Assembly: GCA_963804645.1 (NCBI GenBank)
Contig: CAWDRG010000019.1
Span: forward strand, 96,001 to 160,000
Source: an uncultured Bacillota bacterium
GTDB taxonomy: Bacteria > Sysuimicrobiota > Sysuimicrobiia > Sysuimicrobiales > Segetimicrobiaceae
Reading direction: 5' to 3'
Length of the DNA: 64,000 nucleotides
In this document: in pieces, positions 14,164 to 21,979 of the stretch
Position numbering within the stretch: the stretch's first letter is position 1
Layout of the letters: each line of letters opens with the position of its first letter
The notes under the pieces: generated by a model
Databases searched by the model: none
What the model was told of the DNA's origin: nothing
Seen by the model: only the letters and a program-made list of their open reading frames with translations
Program-made: the position numbers and the translations under genes

Positions 14164-15731
14164 CACTCGCCGCCGCCCTTGAGGATGCCGAAGGACGACT
14201 CGGCGCGCTTCCGCAGCGCCGCCCGGTCGACCTTGCCGGTGCTGCCGAGCGGCGCCGCGTCGATGACCAGGACGCGCCGAGGATGGGCGTACGCGGGGCC
14301 GCGGCTCAGGAAGAACTGCTTCAGCTCGTCCTCGGCGACCGTGTGCCCCTCGTGCAGCACCACGAACGCCACGGGAGCCTCTCCCTTGACCGCGTGCGGG
14401 ACCGGGACGACGAAGACCTCCCGCACGGCGGGATGGCGGAGCAGCGTGTCCTCGACTTCTTTGGGGTAGACGTTCTCGCCGCCGACATTGATCATGTCGT
14501 CCATCCGCCCGAGCACGTAGTAATAGCCGTCCTCGTCGCAGCGCGCCAAGTCGCCCGTGTGCAGCCATCCGTCCGCGTCGATCTTCCTGGCCGTGAGCTC
14601 CGGCGCCTTGTAGTACCCTGCGGCGACCCCCGGATTACGCGTCCACAGCTCTCCGGGCTCACCCGGACCGGCCGGGTGCCCGTCGGGCGTGACGACGCGC
14701 ACCTCGCAGCCCGGGAGGGGCAGGCCGCAGCTGCCGAGCTTCCGGGGCCCGAAGCGCGGACTTTCAAACACGACCGGCCCGCCCTCGGTGAGGCCGTACC
14801 CCTCGCTGATGCCCGCGCCGAACGTCGCCTGAAACTCCGCGAGGAGGTCCGGCGGCACCATCGCCGACCCGCACGCCGCCCACCGGATGGACGTGACGTC
14901 GTGCTCGGCCAGCAGCCGGCGCTCGTTCAGCAGCAGGCGGTACATCGCGGGCACGCCCGTGAGGTACGTGCAGCGGTGCCGCGCGATCGCGCGAATGACC
15001 TCGGCCGCGTCGAACCCGGGGAGGATGACGACGGCGCCGCCGGCCATCAGCAGCGGTTTCACCGCCGAGGCCATCGCGTTCTTATGGTACAGCGGAACCG
15101 CCACCAGCCCGCGGTCGGTCTCGTCGAACATCATGATTCGGCGGACCATGTCCATGTTCCAGTACTGGCCGCCGTGCGTCAGGAGCACGCCCTTGGGCCG
15201 GCCGGTCGACCCGGAGGTATACGGCTGCATGCACACGTCGTCCGGGGAGACCGCGGCGCTCTCGAACTCCGGGGAGGCGTCGTCGAGCAGCCGGTCGTAC
15301 GGCAGGGCGCCCGCCGGCGGCCGCTCCGTCACCACCAGCGCGCGGAGCGCCGGCACGTCCGCCTTGAGCCGGACCGCCTGGTCCGCCAGCGCGTGCGCGG
15401 CGATCAGTACCTGCGCATCCGAGTGCTCCACGCAGTACCGCAGCGTGTCGTAGCCGAGCCGCACGTTCAGCGGGACCGGGACCGCGCCGGCCCGCATCGT
15501 GCCGAAGCACAGTTCGATGAACCGCCATTCGTTCGGGAAGAGCAGGGCGACCCGGGCGCCCGCGCCGACGTCGAGACCGCGGAGCAGGCTCGCCACCCGG
15601 CGCATCCGGCCGTCGAGCGCTCGATAGGTCAGCGTGACCCCATCCTGGATGACCGCCGGCCGTTCGGGGAACGCGCACGCCGGCACGTAGATCAGTTCGC
15701 CGAAGTTGGTGGGAGACGTCTGCATGAGCAT
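14163..15731 (-). CDS. Class I adenylate-forming enzyme (acyl-CoA synthetase)
   Basis: YTSGSTGRPKGV, EGYGLTEG, WLHTGD, GGENVYPKEVE, STGKVDR. Confidence 0.92.
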   Translation of the reverse strand: MLMQTSPTNFGELIYVPACAFPERPAVIQDGVTLTYRALDGRMRRVASLLRGLDVGAGARVALLFPNEWRFIELCFGTMRAGAVPVPLNVRLGYDTLRYCVEHSDAQVLIAAHALADQAVRLKADVPALRALVVTERPPAGALPYDRLLDDASPEFESAAVSPDDVCMQPYTSGSTGRPKGVLLTHGGQYWNMDMVRRIMMFDETDRGLVAVPLYHKNAMASAVKPLLMAGGAVVILPGFDAAEVIRAIARHRCTYLTGVPAMYRLLLNERRLLAEHDVTSIRWAACGSAMVPPDLLAEFQATFGAGISEGYGLTEGGPVVFESPRFGPRKLGSCGLPLPGCEVRVVTPDGHPAGPGEPGELWTRNPGVAAGYYKAPELTARKIDADGWLHTGDLARCDEDGYYYVLGRMDDMINVGGENVYPKEVEDTLLRHPAVREVFVVPVPHAVKGEAPVAFVVLHEGHTVAEDELKQFFLSRGPAYAHPRRVLVIDAAPLGSTGKVDRAALRKRAESSFGILKGGGE

Positions 15732-15752
15732 CGGTGCCGGTCCTCTCGACGG

Positions 15753-16739
15753 CTACTCCTGCGGCCGAATGATGATCTTGCCGAACACGTCCCGCTCTTC
15801 CAGGAGACGCTCGCCCTCCGCGGTGGCGGCGAGCGGCAGGCGGCGGTCGATCACCGGGCGCAGCTGCCCCGACTGCACCGCACCCAGCACCGCCTCGAGG
15901 TCCGCGCGGCTCCAGCCGTCCGAGCCGAGCACGGTGAGCTCGCGGGTCCACACATAGCGGAGGTCGGTCTTCGCGTCGTACCCGGAGGTGGCGCCGCACA
16001 CCAGGAGCCGGCCGCCCTTGCGCAGGCTGCGGATGCTGCGCGGCCACGTGTCGGCCCCGGTGTAGTCGACGACGACGTCCACCCCGCGCTTCTGCGTGAG
16101 CCGCCAGACCTCCCGGTCGAACTCGACGTCCCGGTAGTTGATGAGGTGGTCGGCGCCGAGGGCCGCGAGCTTCGCCAGCTTGTCCTCGCGCGACGCCGCC
16201 GCGTACACGACGCACCCCGCGAGCTTCGCGATCTGGACGCACGCGGTCCCCACGCCGCCCGCCGCGCCGAGGATTAGGACGCGCTCCATCGGCTGCAGAC
16301 CGCCGCGAGTCACGAGCATGCGCCACGCCGAGCCGTAGGCGATCGGCAGGGCCGCGGCGTCGTCGAAGGTCATCGCGTCGGGGAGCGGGATGAGGTTCGC
16401 AGTCGGCACCCGGACGTACTCGGCGAGGCCGCCGGGGATGTCCTCGCCGATCGCGCCCCCGTCGATGGCGGGATCGACCACCACGCGCTCGCCCACCCGC
16501 ACCGCCGAGTCGCCGGGACCGATCTCCGCGACCACCCCCGCGATATCCCCGCCGGACGTGAACGGCAGGGGCGTGGGCTTCCCGGGCATGCCGCGCCGCA
16601 CGAACACATCGAGGTGGTTGAGGCCGCAGGCGTGGACCTGGACGACGGCGTGCCCCGGCCCGGCGCGGGGCGTCGGCACATCCGACTCGAGCCGCAGTAC
16701 GTCGCGTCCCCCGTGTTCGTGAAAGACGACCGCCCGCAT
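15753..16739 (-). CDS. MDR family zinc-binding dehydrogenase / NADPH:quinone oxidoreductase
   Basis: ACGLNHLD, GAAGGVG, CGATSG, FGKII. Confidence 0.88.
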   Translation of the reverse strand: MRAVVFHEHGGRDVLRLESDVPTPRAGPGHAVVQVHACGLNHLDVFVRRGMPGKPTPLPFTSGGDIAGVVAEIGPGDSAVRVGERVVVDPAIDGGAIGEDIPGGLAEYVRVPTANLIPLPDAMTFDDAAALPIAYGSAWRMLVTRGGLQPMERVLILGAAGGVGTACVQIAKLAGCVVYAAASREDKLAKLAALGADHLINYRDVEFDREVWRLTQKRGVDVVVDYTGADTWPRSIRSLRKGGRLLVCGATSGYDAKTDLRYVWTRELTVLGSDGWSRADLEAVLGAVQSGQLRPVIDRRLPLAATAEGERLLEERDVFGKIIIRPQE

Positions 16740-16844
16740 GATGTCTCCACCCCGTGCGGCGGACGGCCCCGTCGGCCCGCCCGCACTGCCGCTGTGGAAA
16801 CTTCGCGGCGTGCGGGCGCATCACCTAGATAAGATGAACGAGCC

Positions 16845-17126
16845 GGCGACCCGCGTAATACCTGAATCCGGCGGCATCTGCGCAGACTTTGGAGCAAGCA
16901 CGACCTGCTCGCGGAAGCTCGCGAATTGCTTGGGCCGGTGCGATCCAAGGGACGAAATTGTGCCCTTCCAGGATAATCTACACTCCAGTGTAGATTATCC
17001 TGGCAGGGCACAATTTCGTCGTCCATCGGCCCGCCGGTGCATGTCATTGGCAAGCTTCCGCGAGCAGATCGTGCTGGCTCTAAAGTCTGGACATTTCCGC
17101 CGGATTCAGGTAATACGTGGGTTGCC
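16845..17126. repeat. Long imperfect palindrome (about 280 bp) with a 70-bp near-perfect core
   Basis: 16951-16984 pairs with 16987-17020 (34 bp, 1 mismatch); outer arms 16845-16919 and 17053-17126 are largely complementary. Confidence 0.92.
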
Positions 17127-17166
17127 ACCAGGACGGAGGCCTATCCACATACGGGGGTGCCGGCTC

Positions 17167-18275
17167 ATGGATCAGCATAGCATAGTGGTTGGTCTGGATG
17201 TCCACAAAGGGAGCATCACGGCCGCGGTCCTGCCGCCAAACGTTGCGCGGCCTCAGGAGACGTGCACGATCGAGAACGACGCGCGGGCCGTCGAGCGCTT
17301 GGTGAAACGGATCATGAAGAACGGGAATGCGGTGTTTGTGTACGAGGCGGGGCCGTGTGGATATACGCTGCACCGGCAGTTGTATCGTCTGGGCTGCCAG
17401 GCGGCGGTGATCGCCCCGGGCCTGACGCCCGTGCGTCCCGGCGATCGGGTCAAAACGGATCGGCGTGACGCGGAGAACTTGGCCCAACTCTATCGCGCGG
17501 GGCAACTCACGGAAATTCGGGTGCCCACCGGGGAAGAGGAAGCGGCCAGAGACCTCGTCCGTGCGCGCGAAGACGCCGTGGCCGACCGGCTGCGCGCCCG
17601 ACATCGGCTGAGCAAATTTCTCCTTCGTCAAGGACGGCTGTACGATGGCAAGCAAGCGTGGAGTCAGAAGCATTACGCGTGGCTCCGTCAGCAACGGTTT
17701 GAGTTGACGTTGGCCCAGCAGACGTTTGATGCGTATCTCCGCGGGGTCGAAGAAGCCGACGCCCGGTTGGCGAGTTTGACCACCCAGGTGCTCGAACTGG
17801 CGCAACGGCCGAGCTATGCGGCGCTTGTGCAAGGCCTGCGCTGTCTGAAAGGCGTCGACACGCTGACCGCGATCACACTGATTGTCGAAACACAGGACTT
17901 CCGGCGCTTTGGGCACGCCCGCGCGTACATGGACTTCACCGGCTTGGTGTGCTCCGAGAACAGCAGCGGAGACAGGACCCGCCGCGGCTCTATTACGAAA
18001 GTCGGCAACGCGCATCTCCGCCGTGTCCTGGTCGAGCGGCCTGGAGCTACTCGCATCACAACAGCAGCGGCGCGACGATCACCAAACGACGCCACGGCTG
18101 TCCGGCGGCAGTGGTGCAGATCGCCCGCCGTGCGCAGGACCGGCTTCACCGCCGCTACTGGCGCCTGACCCAGCGCAATAAGCCACGGCCAGTCGCGATC
18201 GTCGCCGTCGCGCGGGAGTTGGCAGGATTCGTCTGGGCAATCGCGCATAGCGTGTCGAGCACCACCGCGGCGTAG
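17167..18275 (+). pseudogene. IS110 family transposase, frameshifted near 18036
   Basis: GLDVHK, YEAG, KTDRRDA, SENSSG, GNAHLRRVLVE, then AAWSY...AIVAVARELAGFVWAI in another frame. Confidence 0.88.
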
Positions 18276-18484
18276 AGTACCAGGAACAGATTCCGAGGAT
18301 CGACGGACGTGTTCTGGACCTGGAGGCGAAGCAGCGGTCAGGAGCATCCTCGAGGGGTCTATGTGGCGGACAGGCTGACGTCTGTGCCGACCCACGTTCC
18401 TAGATTGAGGCAGCTCCCGACGAATCACAATCATGTGCGCTCTGCCCGCTTCGTGCGGGTAACCGCCGAATACGCATGAAAATG

Positions 18485-19690
18485 TCAAGGCTTTTCTCGC
18501 TGCCTCGTGCCGTGGCGGGTAGCGACGAAGGCTCGGTAGTGTCCCTCCGCATCTTGTAAGACCTGCCGTTCTTCAGCCGGCGTCAACGTTTGCTCGTTGG
18601 TCTTGTCCGGCTTGCGTGGACGGCCCCGTCGGCTGGGTGCGCCTGCGGTCAGCTCCACTCGACGTAGCTTGTGCGCCGTAAGACTCGGAGGCGTCCATTT
18701 GTAGTCGGTCCTATCCGCGAGCAGGTGCCAGGCCACCACCGCTAGCTTGCGCGCCACGGCGACGATCGCGATGGCGCGCCCGCGGCGAGCGCGCACACGA
18801 TCGTAGAAGGCATGCAGAGGACCGGGCACACGGATTGCGGACTGGGCCGCTTCGACCAACAGCCCACGCGCATGCGCCTGTCCCTGTCGGCTGATGTGGC
18901 CTGTATGAGCGGGTCGCTCACCGGATTGGCGCACCCGTGGATCCAGGCCCAAATAGCCGACCAACTGCGTCGGCCGCTGAAACCGTGCGACGTCTCCGAT
19001 GACAGCGAGGAGAGCGACCGACGTGATCAACCCCACACCAGGGATCGTCATCAATCGCGTCGCCTGCGGATCCGCGAGAGCGGCCTGCGCGATCCGTTGT
19101 TCGGCTAACTTGATCTCCGCGTCGACGGCGGTGAGCAGGCGGAGCGCACTATCGACTTGGTCCTTCTCTTCGCGCGGAAGCGGCACACTCGCGAGCCAGC
19201 GACAGCCGGCCTTCCCGAACAGGTCCGTGAAGGAGTGTCCAATGAGATTGCGGTGCAGCACCCCGTGAATCCGATTCCGAAGACGCGTCCGCTGCTGAAC
19301 CAGCGACTGATGATGGGCGACCTGATGGCGGAGCGCTCGTGTCACCGGATCTGGTGTCCACACAGGCGGGATAAAATCCGCCGCGAGCAATTGTGCCAAA
19401 ATTGCGCTGTCCACTCGGTCAGTCTTGACCTTGGCACTCGCGATGGCCCGCGTGCGCATTGGATTGGACACAATGACTTCACCGGCATGCTCACTCAGCA
19501 ATTCGGCGATCGCCCATGTATTCACGCTCGCCTCGAGGACGACGCGATCCGTCGAGTGCAGCGTGCGCGCAAAAGCTCGCAATGCGGCGGGCGTCGTCTC
19601 AATGCGTTGCCGTTGCTGAACCTTGCGTCCGTGTTCAAGTACGGCGACTTCAGCAAAGCGTTTGTGGACGTCCAGCCCTATCGATCGCAT
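18485..19690 (-). CDS. IS110 family transposase/recombinase (intact)
   Basis: MRSIGLDVHK, LEAS, KTDRVDS, TIPGVG, YLGLDPRVRQSG, AIVAVARKL. Confidence 0.93.
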   Translation of the reverse strand: MRSIGLDVHKRFAEVAVLEHGRKVQQRQRIETTPAALRAFARTLHSTDRVVLEASVNTWAIAELLSEHAGEVIVSNPMRTRAIASAKVKTDRVDSAILAQLLAADFIPPVWTPDPVTRALRHQVAHHQSLVQQRTRLRNRIHGVLHRNLIGHSFTDLFGKAGCRWLASVPLPREEKDQVDSALRLLTAVDAEIKLAEQRIAQAALADPQATRLMTIPGVGLITSVALLAVIGDVARFQRPTQLVGYLGLDPRVRQSGERPAHTGHISRQGQAHARGLLVEAAQSAIRVPGPLHAFYDRVRARRGRAIAIVAVARKLAVVAWHLLADRTDYKWTPPSLTAHKLRRVELTAGAPSRRGRPRKPDKTNEQTLTPAEERQVLQDAEGHYRAFVATRHGTRQREKP

Positions 19691-19699
19691 GCAGACCCC

Positions 19700-19895
19700 C
19701 TTGGGACCCAGCCGGGCACCACAACACCTACGCATCCGCGCTCGCAGCGCAACCGGGTCAGTCGCAGGGGCGGCCAGATATCAGATCGGACTCGTGGTCC
19801 ATATTCGCGACGGCCTGCCCGTTGCTGGTGGTCCCTTGTGCCCCATGGCCCGGCTCCGCTACGATAAGTCGGAACCGGGTGGGACACCTCTTTCA
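19700..19895 (-). ncRNA. Predicted bridge RNA in the left end of IS110 element 2
   Basis: Internal loop closed by GGCC/GGCC and GGAC/GTCC stems, holding two segments matching the reconstructed target. Confidence 0.65.
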
Positions 19896-20206
19896 TAACC
19901 GATATCAGAGTGATTCACCGTCGCGAACGCTTCGCTTCCAGGACCCGAATACGCCGTCCATCCTCTGGGACGACGGAGGGCCGTTCGTGGCTTGACCTAC
20001 ACGGTACTTGACAGGCTCGTTCATATCAGACCTCGGGCGCGAGGCTCCGGTGGAGGAGGTCGCGGCCGATCCGCGAATCGTGATCCACGCACCGGGACGG
20101 TTCGTGGATCACGGAACCACGACATGCACGTATGCGCGCGGGCGGGGATCGCCGTTGTCGCCGCACGCCGCCCACCCCGATACCCCAGTTCCCTGGAGGC
20201 GCCGCC

Positions 20207-21028
20207 ATGAACGTGTTTGCCAGTCCGGAGATGATCCGATCGCTCACGCCGCTCAGCCGCTTCGACCGGTCACCCGACGGCCGGCCGCGGGTGCCGGACG
20301 ACGTGCTGGGACGCATCGCGCAGTCGTCGATCGAGCAGGCTTGGAAGACCCTCGGTCTGGCCGGGTACGATCACCAATTCGAGGGCAACTGGCTCCAAAC
20401 GCATCCCGGCCGCGTGCTGGTGGGCCGGGCGGTGACGGCCGTGTTCATGCCGTTCCGGCCGGATCTCGACGACGTGGTCATCGCGGGATCGGGCAAGCCC
20501 GCGGGGGAGCGCAAGGGGGGCGCCGGCCAAAACTCGTGGGTCATCGACAGCCTGCTTCCCGGCGACGTGCTCGTGGCAGACTTGTACGGCAAGATCGAGA
20601 ACGGGACGCTCGTCGGCGACAACCTCTCGACGACGCTCAGCCGACGGACGGGGGCCGGGGCTGTGATTGAGGGAGGCATTCGGGACTATGAGGGCGTGAA
20701 GCAGATCCCGTCCCTGCAGATCTTCTGCCGGGGCCTGCATCCGACCGCGATCCGCGAGATGTCGCTCGTCGGGGTCAACATCCCGGTGCGCATCGGCGGC
20801 GTGACGGTGCTGCCGGGCGACGTGGTGCTCGGCAAGGAGACGGGGGTGATCTTCATTCCGCCCCATCTCGCCGAGGACGTGGCCACGCGCGCGGAGGACA
20901 TCCGGCTGCGCGACATCTTCAGCAAGCAGCGGCTGGCCGAGGGGCGGTACACGGCATTCGCGATCGACAAGGACTGGACTCAGGACATCGAGGACGATTT
21001 TCGGAACTGGAAGACCGCGCGCGGGTAG
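20207..21028 (+). CDS. RraA family / HMG-aldolase-like protein
   Basis: LVGRAVT, PGDVLVAD, VGDNL, VIEGGIRD, VLPGDVVLG. Confidence 0.85.
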   Translation: MNVFASPEMIRSLTPLSRFDRSPDGRPRVPDDVLGRIAQSSIEQAWKTLGLAGYDHQFEGNWLQTHPGRVLVGRAVTAVFMPFRPDLDDVVIAGSGKPAGERKGGAGQNSWVIDSLLPGDVLVADLYGKIENGTLVGDNLSTTLSRRTGAGAVIEGGIRDYEGVKQIPSLQIFCRGLHPTAIREMSLVGVNIPVRIGGVTVLPGDVVLGKETGVIFIPPHLAEDVATRAEDIRLRDIFSKQRLAEGRYTAFAIDKDWTQDIEDDFRNWKTARG

Positions 21029-21121
21029 GACCGCGCACGTCGGCGCCACCCGCGCGGCGAGGGTGGGAGAGGCGCAGCCCCCGTCGGACACGCGGCCGGT
21101 CTGAGCGCGCGCCGCCGCGGC

Positions 21122-21979
21122 TTACCCCTCGGGGGTCCCGATGATCCGTGCGATGTCAGACGCGAAGCGCGTCTGGCTGTCATCCTCGGGCGCGTACCCG
21201 AGGACGCGCCGCGCGCTGGCCAGGCTCCAGAAGCGGTGGGTGTTGCCGCTGATCCCGTAGGCGATCAAGAACGGGACGTCGTGGACGTCCGCGATATTCT
21301 CCGTCTCTACCATGCGAATGACCTCTTGGACCTGGTCCCTCTTGGACAGGTACGCGCCGAGCGCGCGGTGCATGCGTTTGAGATCGCCGGGCGGCACCTG
21401 GGGTAGATCGGTGTCGCGCGGCGCGCCGATCCGCCAGGCCACGACCTCCAGCGGACGCCCGTCGACCCGGCCGGTCGCGAACACGAAGCCGAGGAGCTCG
21501 TAGGCGGCTTTGGACCAACCGTACCAGTTGTCCGAGCGGGGCAGCATCTCCGGCGTGACCATCTCCAGTTGCTCGGCCCAGATCAGCGGCTCGTAATAGT
21601 CCGCCGCGTGATTGGAACTCGTGAGGACGACCCGCCGCACGTTCTCCTCGAGCGCGGTGCGGCAGACGTTGTATGCGATCGCCACGTTCTCGTATTCCGC
21701 CCAGAACTTCGTGTCGTCAGTGTCGTGCGCCCGCGCGGCCGCCGACGGCCGGATGAACGCGCAGTGGACCACCGCGTCGGCGCCGCGGAAGAGCGCGCGG
21801 TACGCGTTGCGGTCGCGCTGCGTCAGGTCCGCCAGCACGACACCCGGCACCGGCACGCCGTTCCGGTCCGTCGCCCGCACGTCGATCGGCACGAGGTCCC
21901 ACCGATCACGGAGTTCGGGAAACATGCGCTGCGCCACGTACCCGGTGGCTCCCGTGAGGACGACCCGCCGCTTCGGCAT
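21122..21979 (-). CDS. NAD-dependent epimerase/dehydratase (uronate dehydrogenase-like SDR)
   Basis: LTGATGYVA, SSNHA, YGWSK. Confidence 0.8.
   Translation of the reverse strand: MPKRRVVLTGATGYVAQRMFPELRDRWDLVPIDVRATDRNGVPVPGVVLADLTQRDRNAYRALFRGADAVVHCAFIRPSAAARAHDTDDTKFWAEYENVAIAYNVCRTALEENVRRVVLTSSNHAADYYEPLIWAEQLEMVTPEMLPRSDNWYGWSKAAYELLGFVFATGRVDGRPLEVVAWRIGAPRDTDLPQVPPGDLKRMHRALGAYLSKRDQVQEVIRMVETENIADVHDVPFLIAYGISGNTHRFWSLASARRVLGYAPEDDSQTRFASDIARIIGTPEG

Follow-up and report, generated by a model that had tools for sequence, protein, structure and literature searches.

A probable bridge RNA gene of an IS1111-type element divided by a second, apparently RNA-guided insertion sequence in an uncultured Bacillota bacterium

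The stretch of DNA analysed here, referred to as the window, comprises 64,000 nucleotides (nt) from an uncultured Bacillota bacterium (assembly GCA_963804645.1, contig CAWDRG010000019.1, positions 96,001 to 160,000), and its own numbering is used throughout. Two non-coding segments of the window, 18276-18472 and 19905-20030, are very probably the halves of a bridge (seek) RNA gene of about 250 nt that belongs to an insertion sequence (IS) of the IS1111 type and was split by a guided second element of the IS110 family. The predicted outer RNA joins the bridge/seek RNAs already known from IS1111 as a new member; the novel part is the nesting, an unusual arrangement in which a second bridge-RNA element is programmed to target the donor loop of the outer RNA. 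A first-pass annotation of the window had placed the bridge/seek RNA of one IS110 element in the span 18290-20030. The reading as RNA stands; the span holds parts of two elements, and the transposase gene at 18485-19690 is that of the nested one.

The outer element and its probable, interrupted RNA gene

The outer IS1111-type element lies on the forward strand at 16827-20030 and measures 3204 base pairs (bp) here, or 1517 bp without its two nested insertions, a length taken from the copy in C16. According to the genome search, the repeat unit of about 16827-20030 is present in six copies, one each in the window, C6, C17 and C16 and two in C21 (C21a and C21b), which share the left end AGATAAGATGAACGAGCC and the right end GGCTCGTTCATATCAGA. 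The C16 copy lacks window positions 18473-19901, with an overlap of 3 nt, ATA, between the two sides, and the reverse-strand gene in this interval is therefore part of a nested element and not of the outer one. A contig from the public DNA run X1 joins 18469 to 19902, that is, it shows the joint without the inner element. Since a separate element sits inside it, the outer RNA gene is interrupted in the window copy.

The non-coding region downstream of the outer transposase gene amounts to 323 nt (18276-18472 plus 19905-20030), against about 84 nt upstream of the gene in the C16 copy, and the joined halves are identical to the uninterrupted sequence C16:1195-1517. Joining and folding the two segments, as the first-pass annotation had proposed, thus means folding a natural sequence. 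A free energy of -148.1 kcal/mol was obtained, compared with a mean of -118.8 kcal/mol for 100 dinucleotide shuffles (z -4.39), none of which folded as well (0/100). The minimum free energy (MFE) fold contains the stems predicted earlier, including a closing stem of 37-38 bp, P1 (18295-18332 with 19929-19965), which encloses both the target-binding and the donor-binding loop.

The 5' part of the gene (18276-18472, forward strand) is identical to C16:1195-1391 and is matched at 18338-18469 by the covariance model R1 described below (70.9 bits). After the 5' arm of P1 (18295-18332) comes the target-binding arm (18341-18417), in which the stems GGAGC/GCTCC (18341-18345 with 18413-18417) and CCTCG/TGAGG (18348-18352 with 18406-18410), both annotated from the outset and both present in the MFE fold, accompany an internal loop and an inner hairpin. 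The 5' strand of this loop, GGGGTCTA (18354-18361), complements T, the core AG and ACCCC of the top strand; originally recognised as GGTCTA at 18356-18361, this reverse-complement guide could be refined to 8 nt, GGGGUCUA. The 3' strand, CCTAGAT (18399-18405), which takes in the CCTAGA annotated at 18399-18404, equals the left flank CCT, the core AG and the first element bases AT. The 5' part of the donor-binding arm (18418-18472) is made up of CGACG, GAATCAC (18422-18428) and AATCAT, the last being the 5' strand of the loop, together with an inner hairpin and the opening half of the donor guide, which ends in CCGAATA. On the far side of the nested element, the 3' part of the gene with the right end (19905-20030, forward strand) holds the second half of the donor guide, TCAGA, followed by GTGATTC (19910-19916), CCGTCG and the 3' arm of P1 (19929-19965). 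The donor guide of the window copy is accordingly in two pieces, ATA at 19902-19904 being the duplicated core of the nested element. The segment ATATCAGA at 19902-19909 is repeated at 20023-20030, and the 3' strand of the donor loop, AUAUCAG, equals the right terminus plus core. The proposal that the loop closed by GAATCAC/GTGATTC contains a copy of the right terminus was thus borne out, and ATATCAG covaries with the terminus in the family.

The window copy is flanked by CACCT-AGA on the left (16822-16829; here and below, a hyphen marks an element boundary or the edge of a core) and by AGA-CCTC on the right. The empty target CACCT-AGA-CCTC reconstructed in the first-pass annotation is right for this copy, with the core refined to AG, the dinucleotide found family-wide; in the window copy, the A that ends AGA opens both the element and the right flank. 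The left flanks of the copies in the genome are CACCT, GTGCT, TCGCT and GCGCT, all four ending in CT (CT-AG), and the right flanks after AGA are CCTC, CCCC, CCCC, CCCT and CCTC, so that five start with ACC(C/T)(C/T). Judged from the flanks of the genome copies, insertion is site-specific, with no target duplication beyond the shared core; eight further CTAGACCYC sites in the whole genome are unoccupied. One contig of run X1, which joins 16769 to 20046, was considered as an empty site and left unused, as its ends lie off the element boundaries and the contig is diverged.

Within these boundaries, the left sub-terminal inverted repeat, ATGAACGAGCC (16834-16844), begins 5 nt after the AG core (16827-16828) and is complementary to the right inverted repeat, GGCTCGTTCAT (20014-20024), which is followed by ATC and then by AG(A). 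The same rule defines the ends of relatives, with core AG, 5 nt and an inverted repeat beginning ATG on the left, and an inverted repeat ending CAT, 3 nt and AG on the right. An arm pair with at most two mismatches is present in 75 of 85 aligned relatives. Repeats of this kind, about 7-17 bp long, are a feature of the IS1111 group.

Covariation and structural conservation among relatives

Relatives of the outer transposase occur in 13 of 94 genomes of the same order. A scan with one genome per species recovered 593 among 605 candidate stretches, and the best 80 were kept; loci of the unpublished genome G025 were used in no analysis. For a map of the guides, all loop positions were compared with all DNA positions in the 60 elements that have AG as left core and are flanked by 12 nt on either side, the ends being set by the inverted repeat. 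Rows with no repeat, with another left-core dinucleotide or cut by a contig end were dropped, as was the second match of L064.

The 5' strand of loop 1 is complementary to the second core base and to right-flank positions +1 to +5 in 55, 50, 50, 52, 47 and 39 of the 60 elements, respectively (z 5.1-7.8 against 300 permutations, which ignore relatedness among the elements). Its 3' strand is identical to left-flank positions -1, -2 and -3 in 56, 54 and 34 elements, and to the first two bases of the element in 58 and 36. The covariation check suggested by the first-pass annotation therefore succeeds in homologs, in that the two strands of loop 1 follow the right and the left target flank. In loop 2, the 3' strand is identical to the last three positions of the right end (-1, -2 and -3) in 58, 58 and 56 elements and to the first right-flank base in 36. 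The signals that run on into the first two element bases and into the first right-flank base resemble handshake guides, which belong to IS621. Over six right-flank positions, target guides score 4.35 matches with their cognate flanks and 2.30 with non-cognate ones, and at least five of the six are matched in 36 of the 60 cognates, compared with 4.0% of non-cognate pairs. Many closely related transposases are accompanied by differing guides and flanks.

Structural conservation was assessed in a seed alignment of 22 downstream regions with 28 pairs, trimmed to give the covariance model R1 of 133 positions. Of the cells in this alignment, 90.1% are paired, as against 85.3% in shuffled alignments (reached by 0 of 500) and at most 43.4% with slid partners, and 9 of the 28 pairs show double-sided changes. 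R1 gives 87 matches in 86 of 91 sources, and of the five unmatched sources, four offer less than 140 nt of DNA downstream of the gene. The closing stem, which lies outside R1, has sequences that are unrelated among relatives, yet the arms of each relative fit each other: cognate duplexes average -58.6 kcal/mol, compared with -32.1 kcal/mol when arms of different elements are paired, and 72 of the 83 cognates pass the 5th percentile of these mismatched pairings. The long stem at 18295-18332 and 19929-19965, proposed earlier to enclose both loops, is thus kept in relatives while its sequence changes. The loop segments also vary among relatives, whereas the stems stay fixed, and the two outcomes named in the first-pass annotation as speaking against its reading, homologs without these stems and guides that stay constant while targets differ, were looked for and not found.

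The nested element and its own predicted RNA

The nested IS110-family element occupies 18473-19904 on the reverse strand (1432 bp, counting one copy of the core TA(T)), is absent from C16, and was inserted between GAATA and TCAGA of the outer donor guide. Its transposase gene (18485-19690, reverse strand; 401 amino acids, aa) contains PF01548 and PF02371, and the 214 nt upstream of this gene encode a target and a donor loop. The target-binding loop (19767-19820, reverse strand) reads, in the RNA and from 19820 down to 19767, GGGCAGGCCG-UCGCGAAUAU-hairpin-GAUCUGAUAUC-UGGCCGCCCC. Within it, UCUGAUAUC equals the left flank of the insertion site, the core and 1 nt of the element, and AUAUUCG is the complement of the core and the right flank, so that the loop matches its insertion site over 9 and 7 nt. 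The donor guide AUGCGUA (19729-19735, reverse strand) equals the right end of the inner element, ATGCG, plus the core TA. Folded alone, the 214-nt left end is undistinctive (z -1.58; 12 of 200 shuffles do equally well), and the case for the inner RNA rests on covariation instead.

Relatives of the inner element were taken from the phylum and from metagenomes (548 of 601 candidate stretches; the best 80 were kept and 77 examined), and the loop was found in 69 of the 77. In the covariation map of 67 distinct elements, the 3' strand is identical to left-flank positions -1 to -5 in 34, 31, 37, 30 and 25 of 50, and the 5' strand is complementary to the second core base and to right-flank positions +1 to +4 in 37, 37, 34, 33 and 34 of 42. 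Cores are TA or TC across the family, and the donor guide changes together with the right end: CATGCG-TA occurs with AUGCGUA, CATCCG-TA or CATCCG-TC with AUCCGUA or AUCCGUC, CATCCC-TA with AUCCCUA and CATCGG-TC with AUCGGUC. The three core-adjacent bases of the guide equal the last three of the right end in all 34 relatives in which a guide was found, and the match includes both core bases in 27 of these 34. The covariation of the target strands and the donor segment that follows the right end indicate that the inner family has both loops.

Three further observations concern this family. In runs X1 and X8, the summed contig depth at window 19742-19858 is severalfold above that of the rest of the inner element, which fits an inner loop region common to many related elements in those communities. 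Three inner relatives from different genomes, L129, L142 and L150 (the last at G000:C19:48822-48980), have very similar left flanks (containing GGTGCCAAAGAG and CCTTTAT); the target that they share would probably be a conserved gene of another repeated element, and the genome of the window has no uninterrupted copy of it. For the inner relative at C19:49233-50318, no uninterrupted target was found in the genome of the window.

Insertion into the donor guide of another element

The outer parts of the copies in the window, C6, C17 and C21a are identical over 1363/1363 and 126/126 aligned bases, while their inner elements are not: relative to the window, the inner element of C17 shows 237 mismatches and 70 gaps, and that of C21a 393 and 49. 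Three inner variants, differing at 17-28% of aligned positions, thus occupy the same position in the outer element; the window and C6 have one variant in common, and so do C21a and C21b. Although the variants are otherwise strongly diverged, the inner target loop is kept in all three, with 4 to 6 changes in 71 nt. Five of the six outer copies in the genome carry an inner insertion, C16 being the sole free site, and the genome search placed the inner element nowhere outside outer copies.

The same arrangement recurs elsewhere. A relative with it is present in G070, a genome of the same genus, and in two metagenomic loci, L164 and L161, inner-clade elements lie beside diverged outer-family RNA genes (model matches of 39 and 41.3 bits). 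In each locus the insertion falls at the same point of the donor guide, between CCCGCGAATA and TCAGGGTGATC in L164 and between CCCGCGCATA and TCAGTCTGACC in L161. Comparison of the three cases pairs the inner strands UCGCGAAUAU/UCUGAUAUC of this genome with the host donor loop CCGCCGAATA-TCAGAG, the strands ACGCGAAUAU/CCUGAUAUC of L164 with CCCGCGAATA-TCAGGG, and the strands CCGCGCAUAU/GCUGAUAUC of L161 with CCCGCGCATA-TCAGTC.

From these data, we lean towards the view that the inner clade specialises in the donor-guide DNA of another family of bridge-RNA ISs, which would amount to an RNA-guided conflict between two transposons. The donor guide is a site that the host element cannot change alone, because its own terminus would have to change too. 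If this view is correct, each inner insertion disables the RNA of the host element. In a search of the literature that covered titles and the openings of abstracts, no report was found of such an IS inside the RNA gene of another.

The competing view is that a composite of 2.95 kilobases spread as one unit, with C16 as a deletion derivative and no targeted insertion at all. The confinement of the inner element to outer copies in this genome would be expected of such a unit, and the variants shared by the window with C6 and by C21a with C21b make joint movement possible for those pairs. A composite does not, however, account for outer sequences that are identical while the inner variants within them differ by 17-28%, for the precise joint with its 3-nt overlap in C16 and X1, for an inner RNA loop that matches the site by 9 and 7 nt, or for relatives in other outer-family hosts whose guides have changed in step with the donor loop. 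We regard it as improbable.

Alternative explanations for the outer RNA

Several results weigh against the interpretation of the outer non-coding region as a bridge RNA gene. Two defects affect the window copy, whose RNA gene is split and whose transposase is frameshifted, and a scan with Rfam 15 (E up to 1) of window 15500-21500 and C16:1100-1600 returned no relevant family. No unambiguous empty site of the outer element was found. The z-scores of the guide map overstate independence, because the permutations ignore relatedness; in the same map, the 5' strand of loop 2 gives a weak signal, with position DBL5-5 against the second element base in 45 of 60 (z 4.1), and its register varies by subgroup. 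On the left side, the guide reads only 2-3 flank bases, so that specificity comes mostly from the right side. Each of the metatranscriptome runs X17 and X18 yielded a single contig, at 18677-18931 and 17166-17344 within the two transposase genes, with the non-coding region left uncovered; such libraries may contain DNA, and the result speaks neither for nor against expression. Finally, a strand test that drew on fold energy and the number of G-U pairs came out in favour of the antisense strand.

If the region were structured for some other role, such as a stabiliser in the 3' untranslated region, a terminator or a protein-binding DNA palindrome, the matches of 6-8 nt would be due to chance. 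The guides are indeed short in any single element, no transcript was observed in X17 or X18, and the invariant stems GGAG/CUCC and CGACG/CGUCG are without covariation, which speaks neither way. Chance matches do not produce position-by-position diagonals between loops, flanks and ends in 60 elements with different targets, nor cognate guide scores far above the non-cognate ones, nor loop segments that vary between fixed stems, and this explanation can be accorded next to no probability. The functional RNA might instead be antisense to the outer transposase, its guides pairing with the other DNA strands. The antisense strand has more G-U pairs in P1 (402/3344, against 219/2982 in the sense strand) and folds slightly better, being the more stable in 60 of 83 cases. 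Composition explains this bias, which shuffled sequences reproduce with an even larger difference (+8.85 against +5.18 kcal/mol), and the strand test was dropped for that reason. The G+T content of the sense strand is 0.46 in the outer-family RNA region and 0.571 in the inner-family one, and these opposite compositions alone decide which strand folds better in silico. An antisense RNA would also have the 5' ends of its guides facing the core, where IS621, the tested IS1111 seekRNAs and the inner family have 3' ends. As for promoters, ISEc11 is reported to have none besides the junction promoter (Siddiquee et al. 2024, PMC11187229), and no other promoter was found here. An antisense RNA thus appears very unlikely, if not quite as remote as a structure with another role. 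For the bridge RNA reading, we infer production of the RNA, from the sense strand, and, by analogy with tested systems, its binding by the protein.

Transposase genes and other features of the outer element

The outer transposase gene (17167-18275, forward strand) encodes 369 aa in intact copies, with PF01548 (E 3.2e-18) and PF02371 (E 7.1e-20), and so shows the pair of domains that marks the IS110 family, an N-terminal DEDD (RuvC-like) domain and a C-terminal IS116/IS110/IS902 domain. In the window copy, its frame is broken because one A is missing near 18034; this base is present in the other five copies of the genome and in a contig of run X1, and its absence may reflect either a real defect of the window copy or an assembly error. 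The C-terminus of the protein, GLVCSENSSG, has C in place of the P of the IS1111 motif GL-P----S(T)G, and the consensus of nine relatives is GLVPSExSSG. The outer and inner transposase genes are convergent and their proteins are 29% identical. The inner transposase gene in C17 (G000:C17:853084-853863) looks degenerate: it is interrupted by stop codons and, set against the window copy, carries numerous insertions of one base.

An outward-facing TTGACA (20008-20013, forward strand), read from the sequence, would lie 17 nt from TAAGAT (16830-16835) in a hypothetical circle, and TTGACA-N17-TAAGAT across the circle ends is a possible candidate for a junction promoter. A promoter and terminator scan of C16:900-1600 found nothing, and no other promoter-like site was seen.

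The second insertion in the window copy is a palindromic miniature element of 248 bp (16862-17109), with ends CTGAATCCGGCGG and CCGCCGGATTCAG, 7-bp flanking repeats GTAATAC and a perfect 34-bp hairpin at 16951-17020, on which microRNA-like Rfam matches fell by chance. It occupies the loop of a conserved hairpin in the outer left end. An 88% similar miniature element lies at the same site in C6, whereas C21 has there two tandem IS copies with a DDE_Tnp_1_4 transposase (PF13701); in runs X1 and X8, the outer left end is present without the miniature element. Among the relatives, the outer-family copy L027 (G063:C135) lies a few bases past what looks, from its sequence, like the 3' end of a tRNA (containing GGTTCAAATCC and ending in CCA). 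At L064:2374-2677, on the chromosome of Halomonas sp. HK25, two covariance-model matches stand in tandem, and an outer-family copy appears to be inserted in the left-flank guide (GTGTAG-AC) of another copy's RNA gene, the guide that was hit mimicking the left half of the element's own target.

Comparison with known systems

In the published descriptions, IS1111 seekRNAs are encoded in a downstream non-coding region and have the top-strand match 5' of the bottom-strand match, whereas in ISEc21 the order is reversed and the bottom-strand match comes first (Siddiquee et al. 2024, PMC11187229). Bridge RNAs of the IS1111 group are reported to lie in the right end, and many of them to carry the bases that bind the donor in a multiloop (Durrant et al. 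2024, PMC11208160). With an RNA that is downstream, in the right end, and guides in top-strand-first order, the outer element fits the IS1111 pattern. As far as the available accounts describe them, the seekRNA-bearing elements ISEc11, ISPa11 and ISKpn4 also share with it the DEDD transposase, sub-terminal inverted repeats, a long downstream non-coding region with the top-strand match 5' of the bottom-strand match, and an outward -35 sequence for a junction promoter. Differences can be found as well. The outer transposase has 369 aa, compared with the 330-350 aa quoted for the IS1111 family. Covariation resolves a second loop that matches the right terminus, where the available part of the seekRNA account gives target matches only. 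A further difference is the predicted stem of 30-40 bp that closes the whole RNA. The donor site is a simple internal loop in an arm of its own, compared with the multiloop given for many IS1111 RNAs.

Likeness to the bridge RNA of IS621 extends, in the description available, to the presence of target and donor internal loops, each reading opposite strands on the left and on the right (Durrant et al. 2024, PMC11208160), as well as to a core dinucleotide common to both pairings and to guide 3' ends at the core. The guide order is the opposite of that in IS621, the 5' side of the outer loop pairing with the top strand. The first-pass annotation had noted that the reverse-complement guide comes first in both elements, in contrast to IS621, and covariation bears this out, as does the IS1111 order in the published description. 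The core differs as well: IS621 has CT, the outer element AG, and the inner family either TA or TC.

For the inner element, the closest likeness described is to ISEc21, which is also of the IS110 type, has an RNA-encoding non-coding region upstream of its gene, and finds its natural target inside other ISs, at codons that are conserved in IS3-family transposases (Siddiquee et al. 2024, PMC11187229). The inner family does not have the guide order of IS621 and ISEc21, in which the bottom-strand match is 5'; its own top-strand match is 5', compared with 3' in the description of ISEc21. Its target is the RNA gene of an RNA-guided IS, compared with the protein-coding region given for ISEc21. The inner RNA lies upstream of its gene and yet follows IS1111 in the order of its guides, so that this order is not strictly tied to where the RNA is encoded. 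Site specificity in conserved mobile or repeated sequences is also known from IS4321/IS5075 and from the IS1111 members that target attC sites or repetitive extragenic palindromic (REP) sequences. The targets of these elements are transposon inverted repeats, attC and REP, whereas the inner element targets the donor-guide DNA of a bridge RNA.

Proposed mechanism and implications

In the proposed mechanism, the outer RNA would consist of a closing stem of 30-40 bp and two arms, one with the target loop and one with the donor loop, and would be held by the DEDD recombinase, by analogy with the tested IS1111 and IS621 systems. The sense RNA would pair the circularised element with a CT-AG-ACCYC site, and strand exchange would take place at the AG core. 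The 3' strand of the target loop would continue, in a handshake-like manner, over two further bases, identical to those with which the element starts, and that of the donor loop, AUAUCAG, would read the right terminus and the core, its next base tending to equal the first base of the right flank. The inner element would have been guided between GAATA and TCAGA by its own RNA, encoded upstream of its transposase gene, whose target loop matches this site. Outer copies split in this way would move only with RNA supplied by an intact copy such as that in C16.

With the outer element, a large family joins the bridge RNAs of the IS1111 type; the model matches 86 loci, which come from many phyla. Because both loops, the core and the handshake-like positions can be read from natural covariation, the family offers a map for reprogramming experiments. 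Where one RNA-guided IS targets the gene for another's guide RNA, with guides that follow the host sequence, retargeting would have taken place in nature, and the spread of ISs might be held back.

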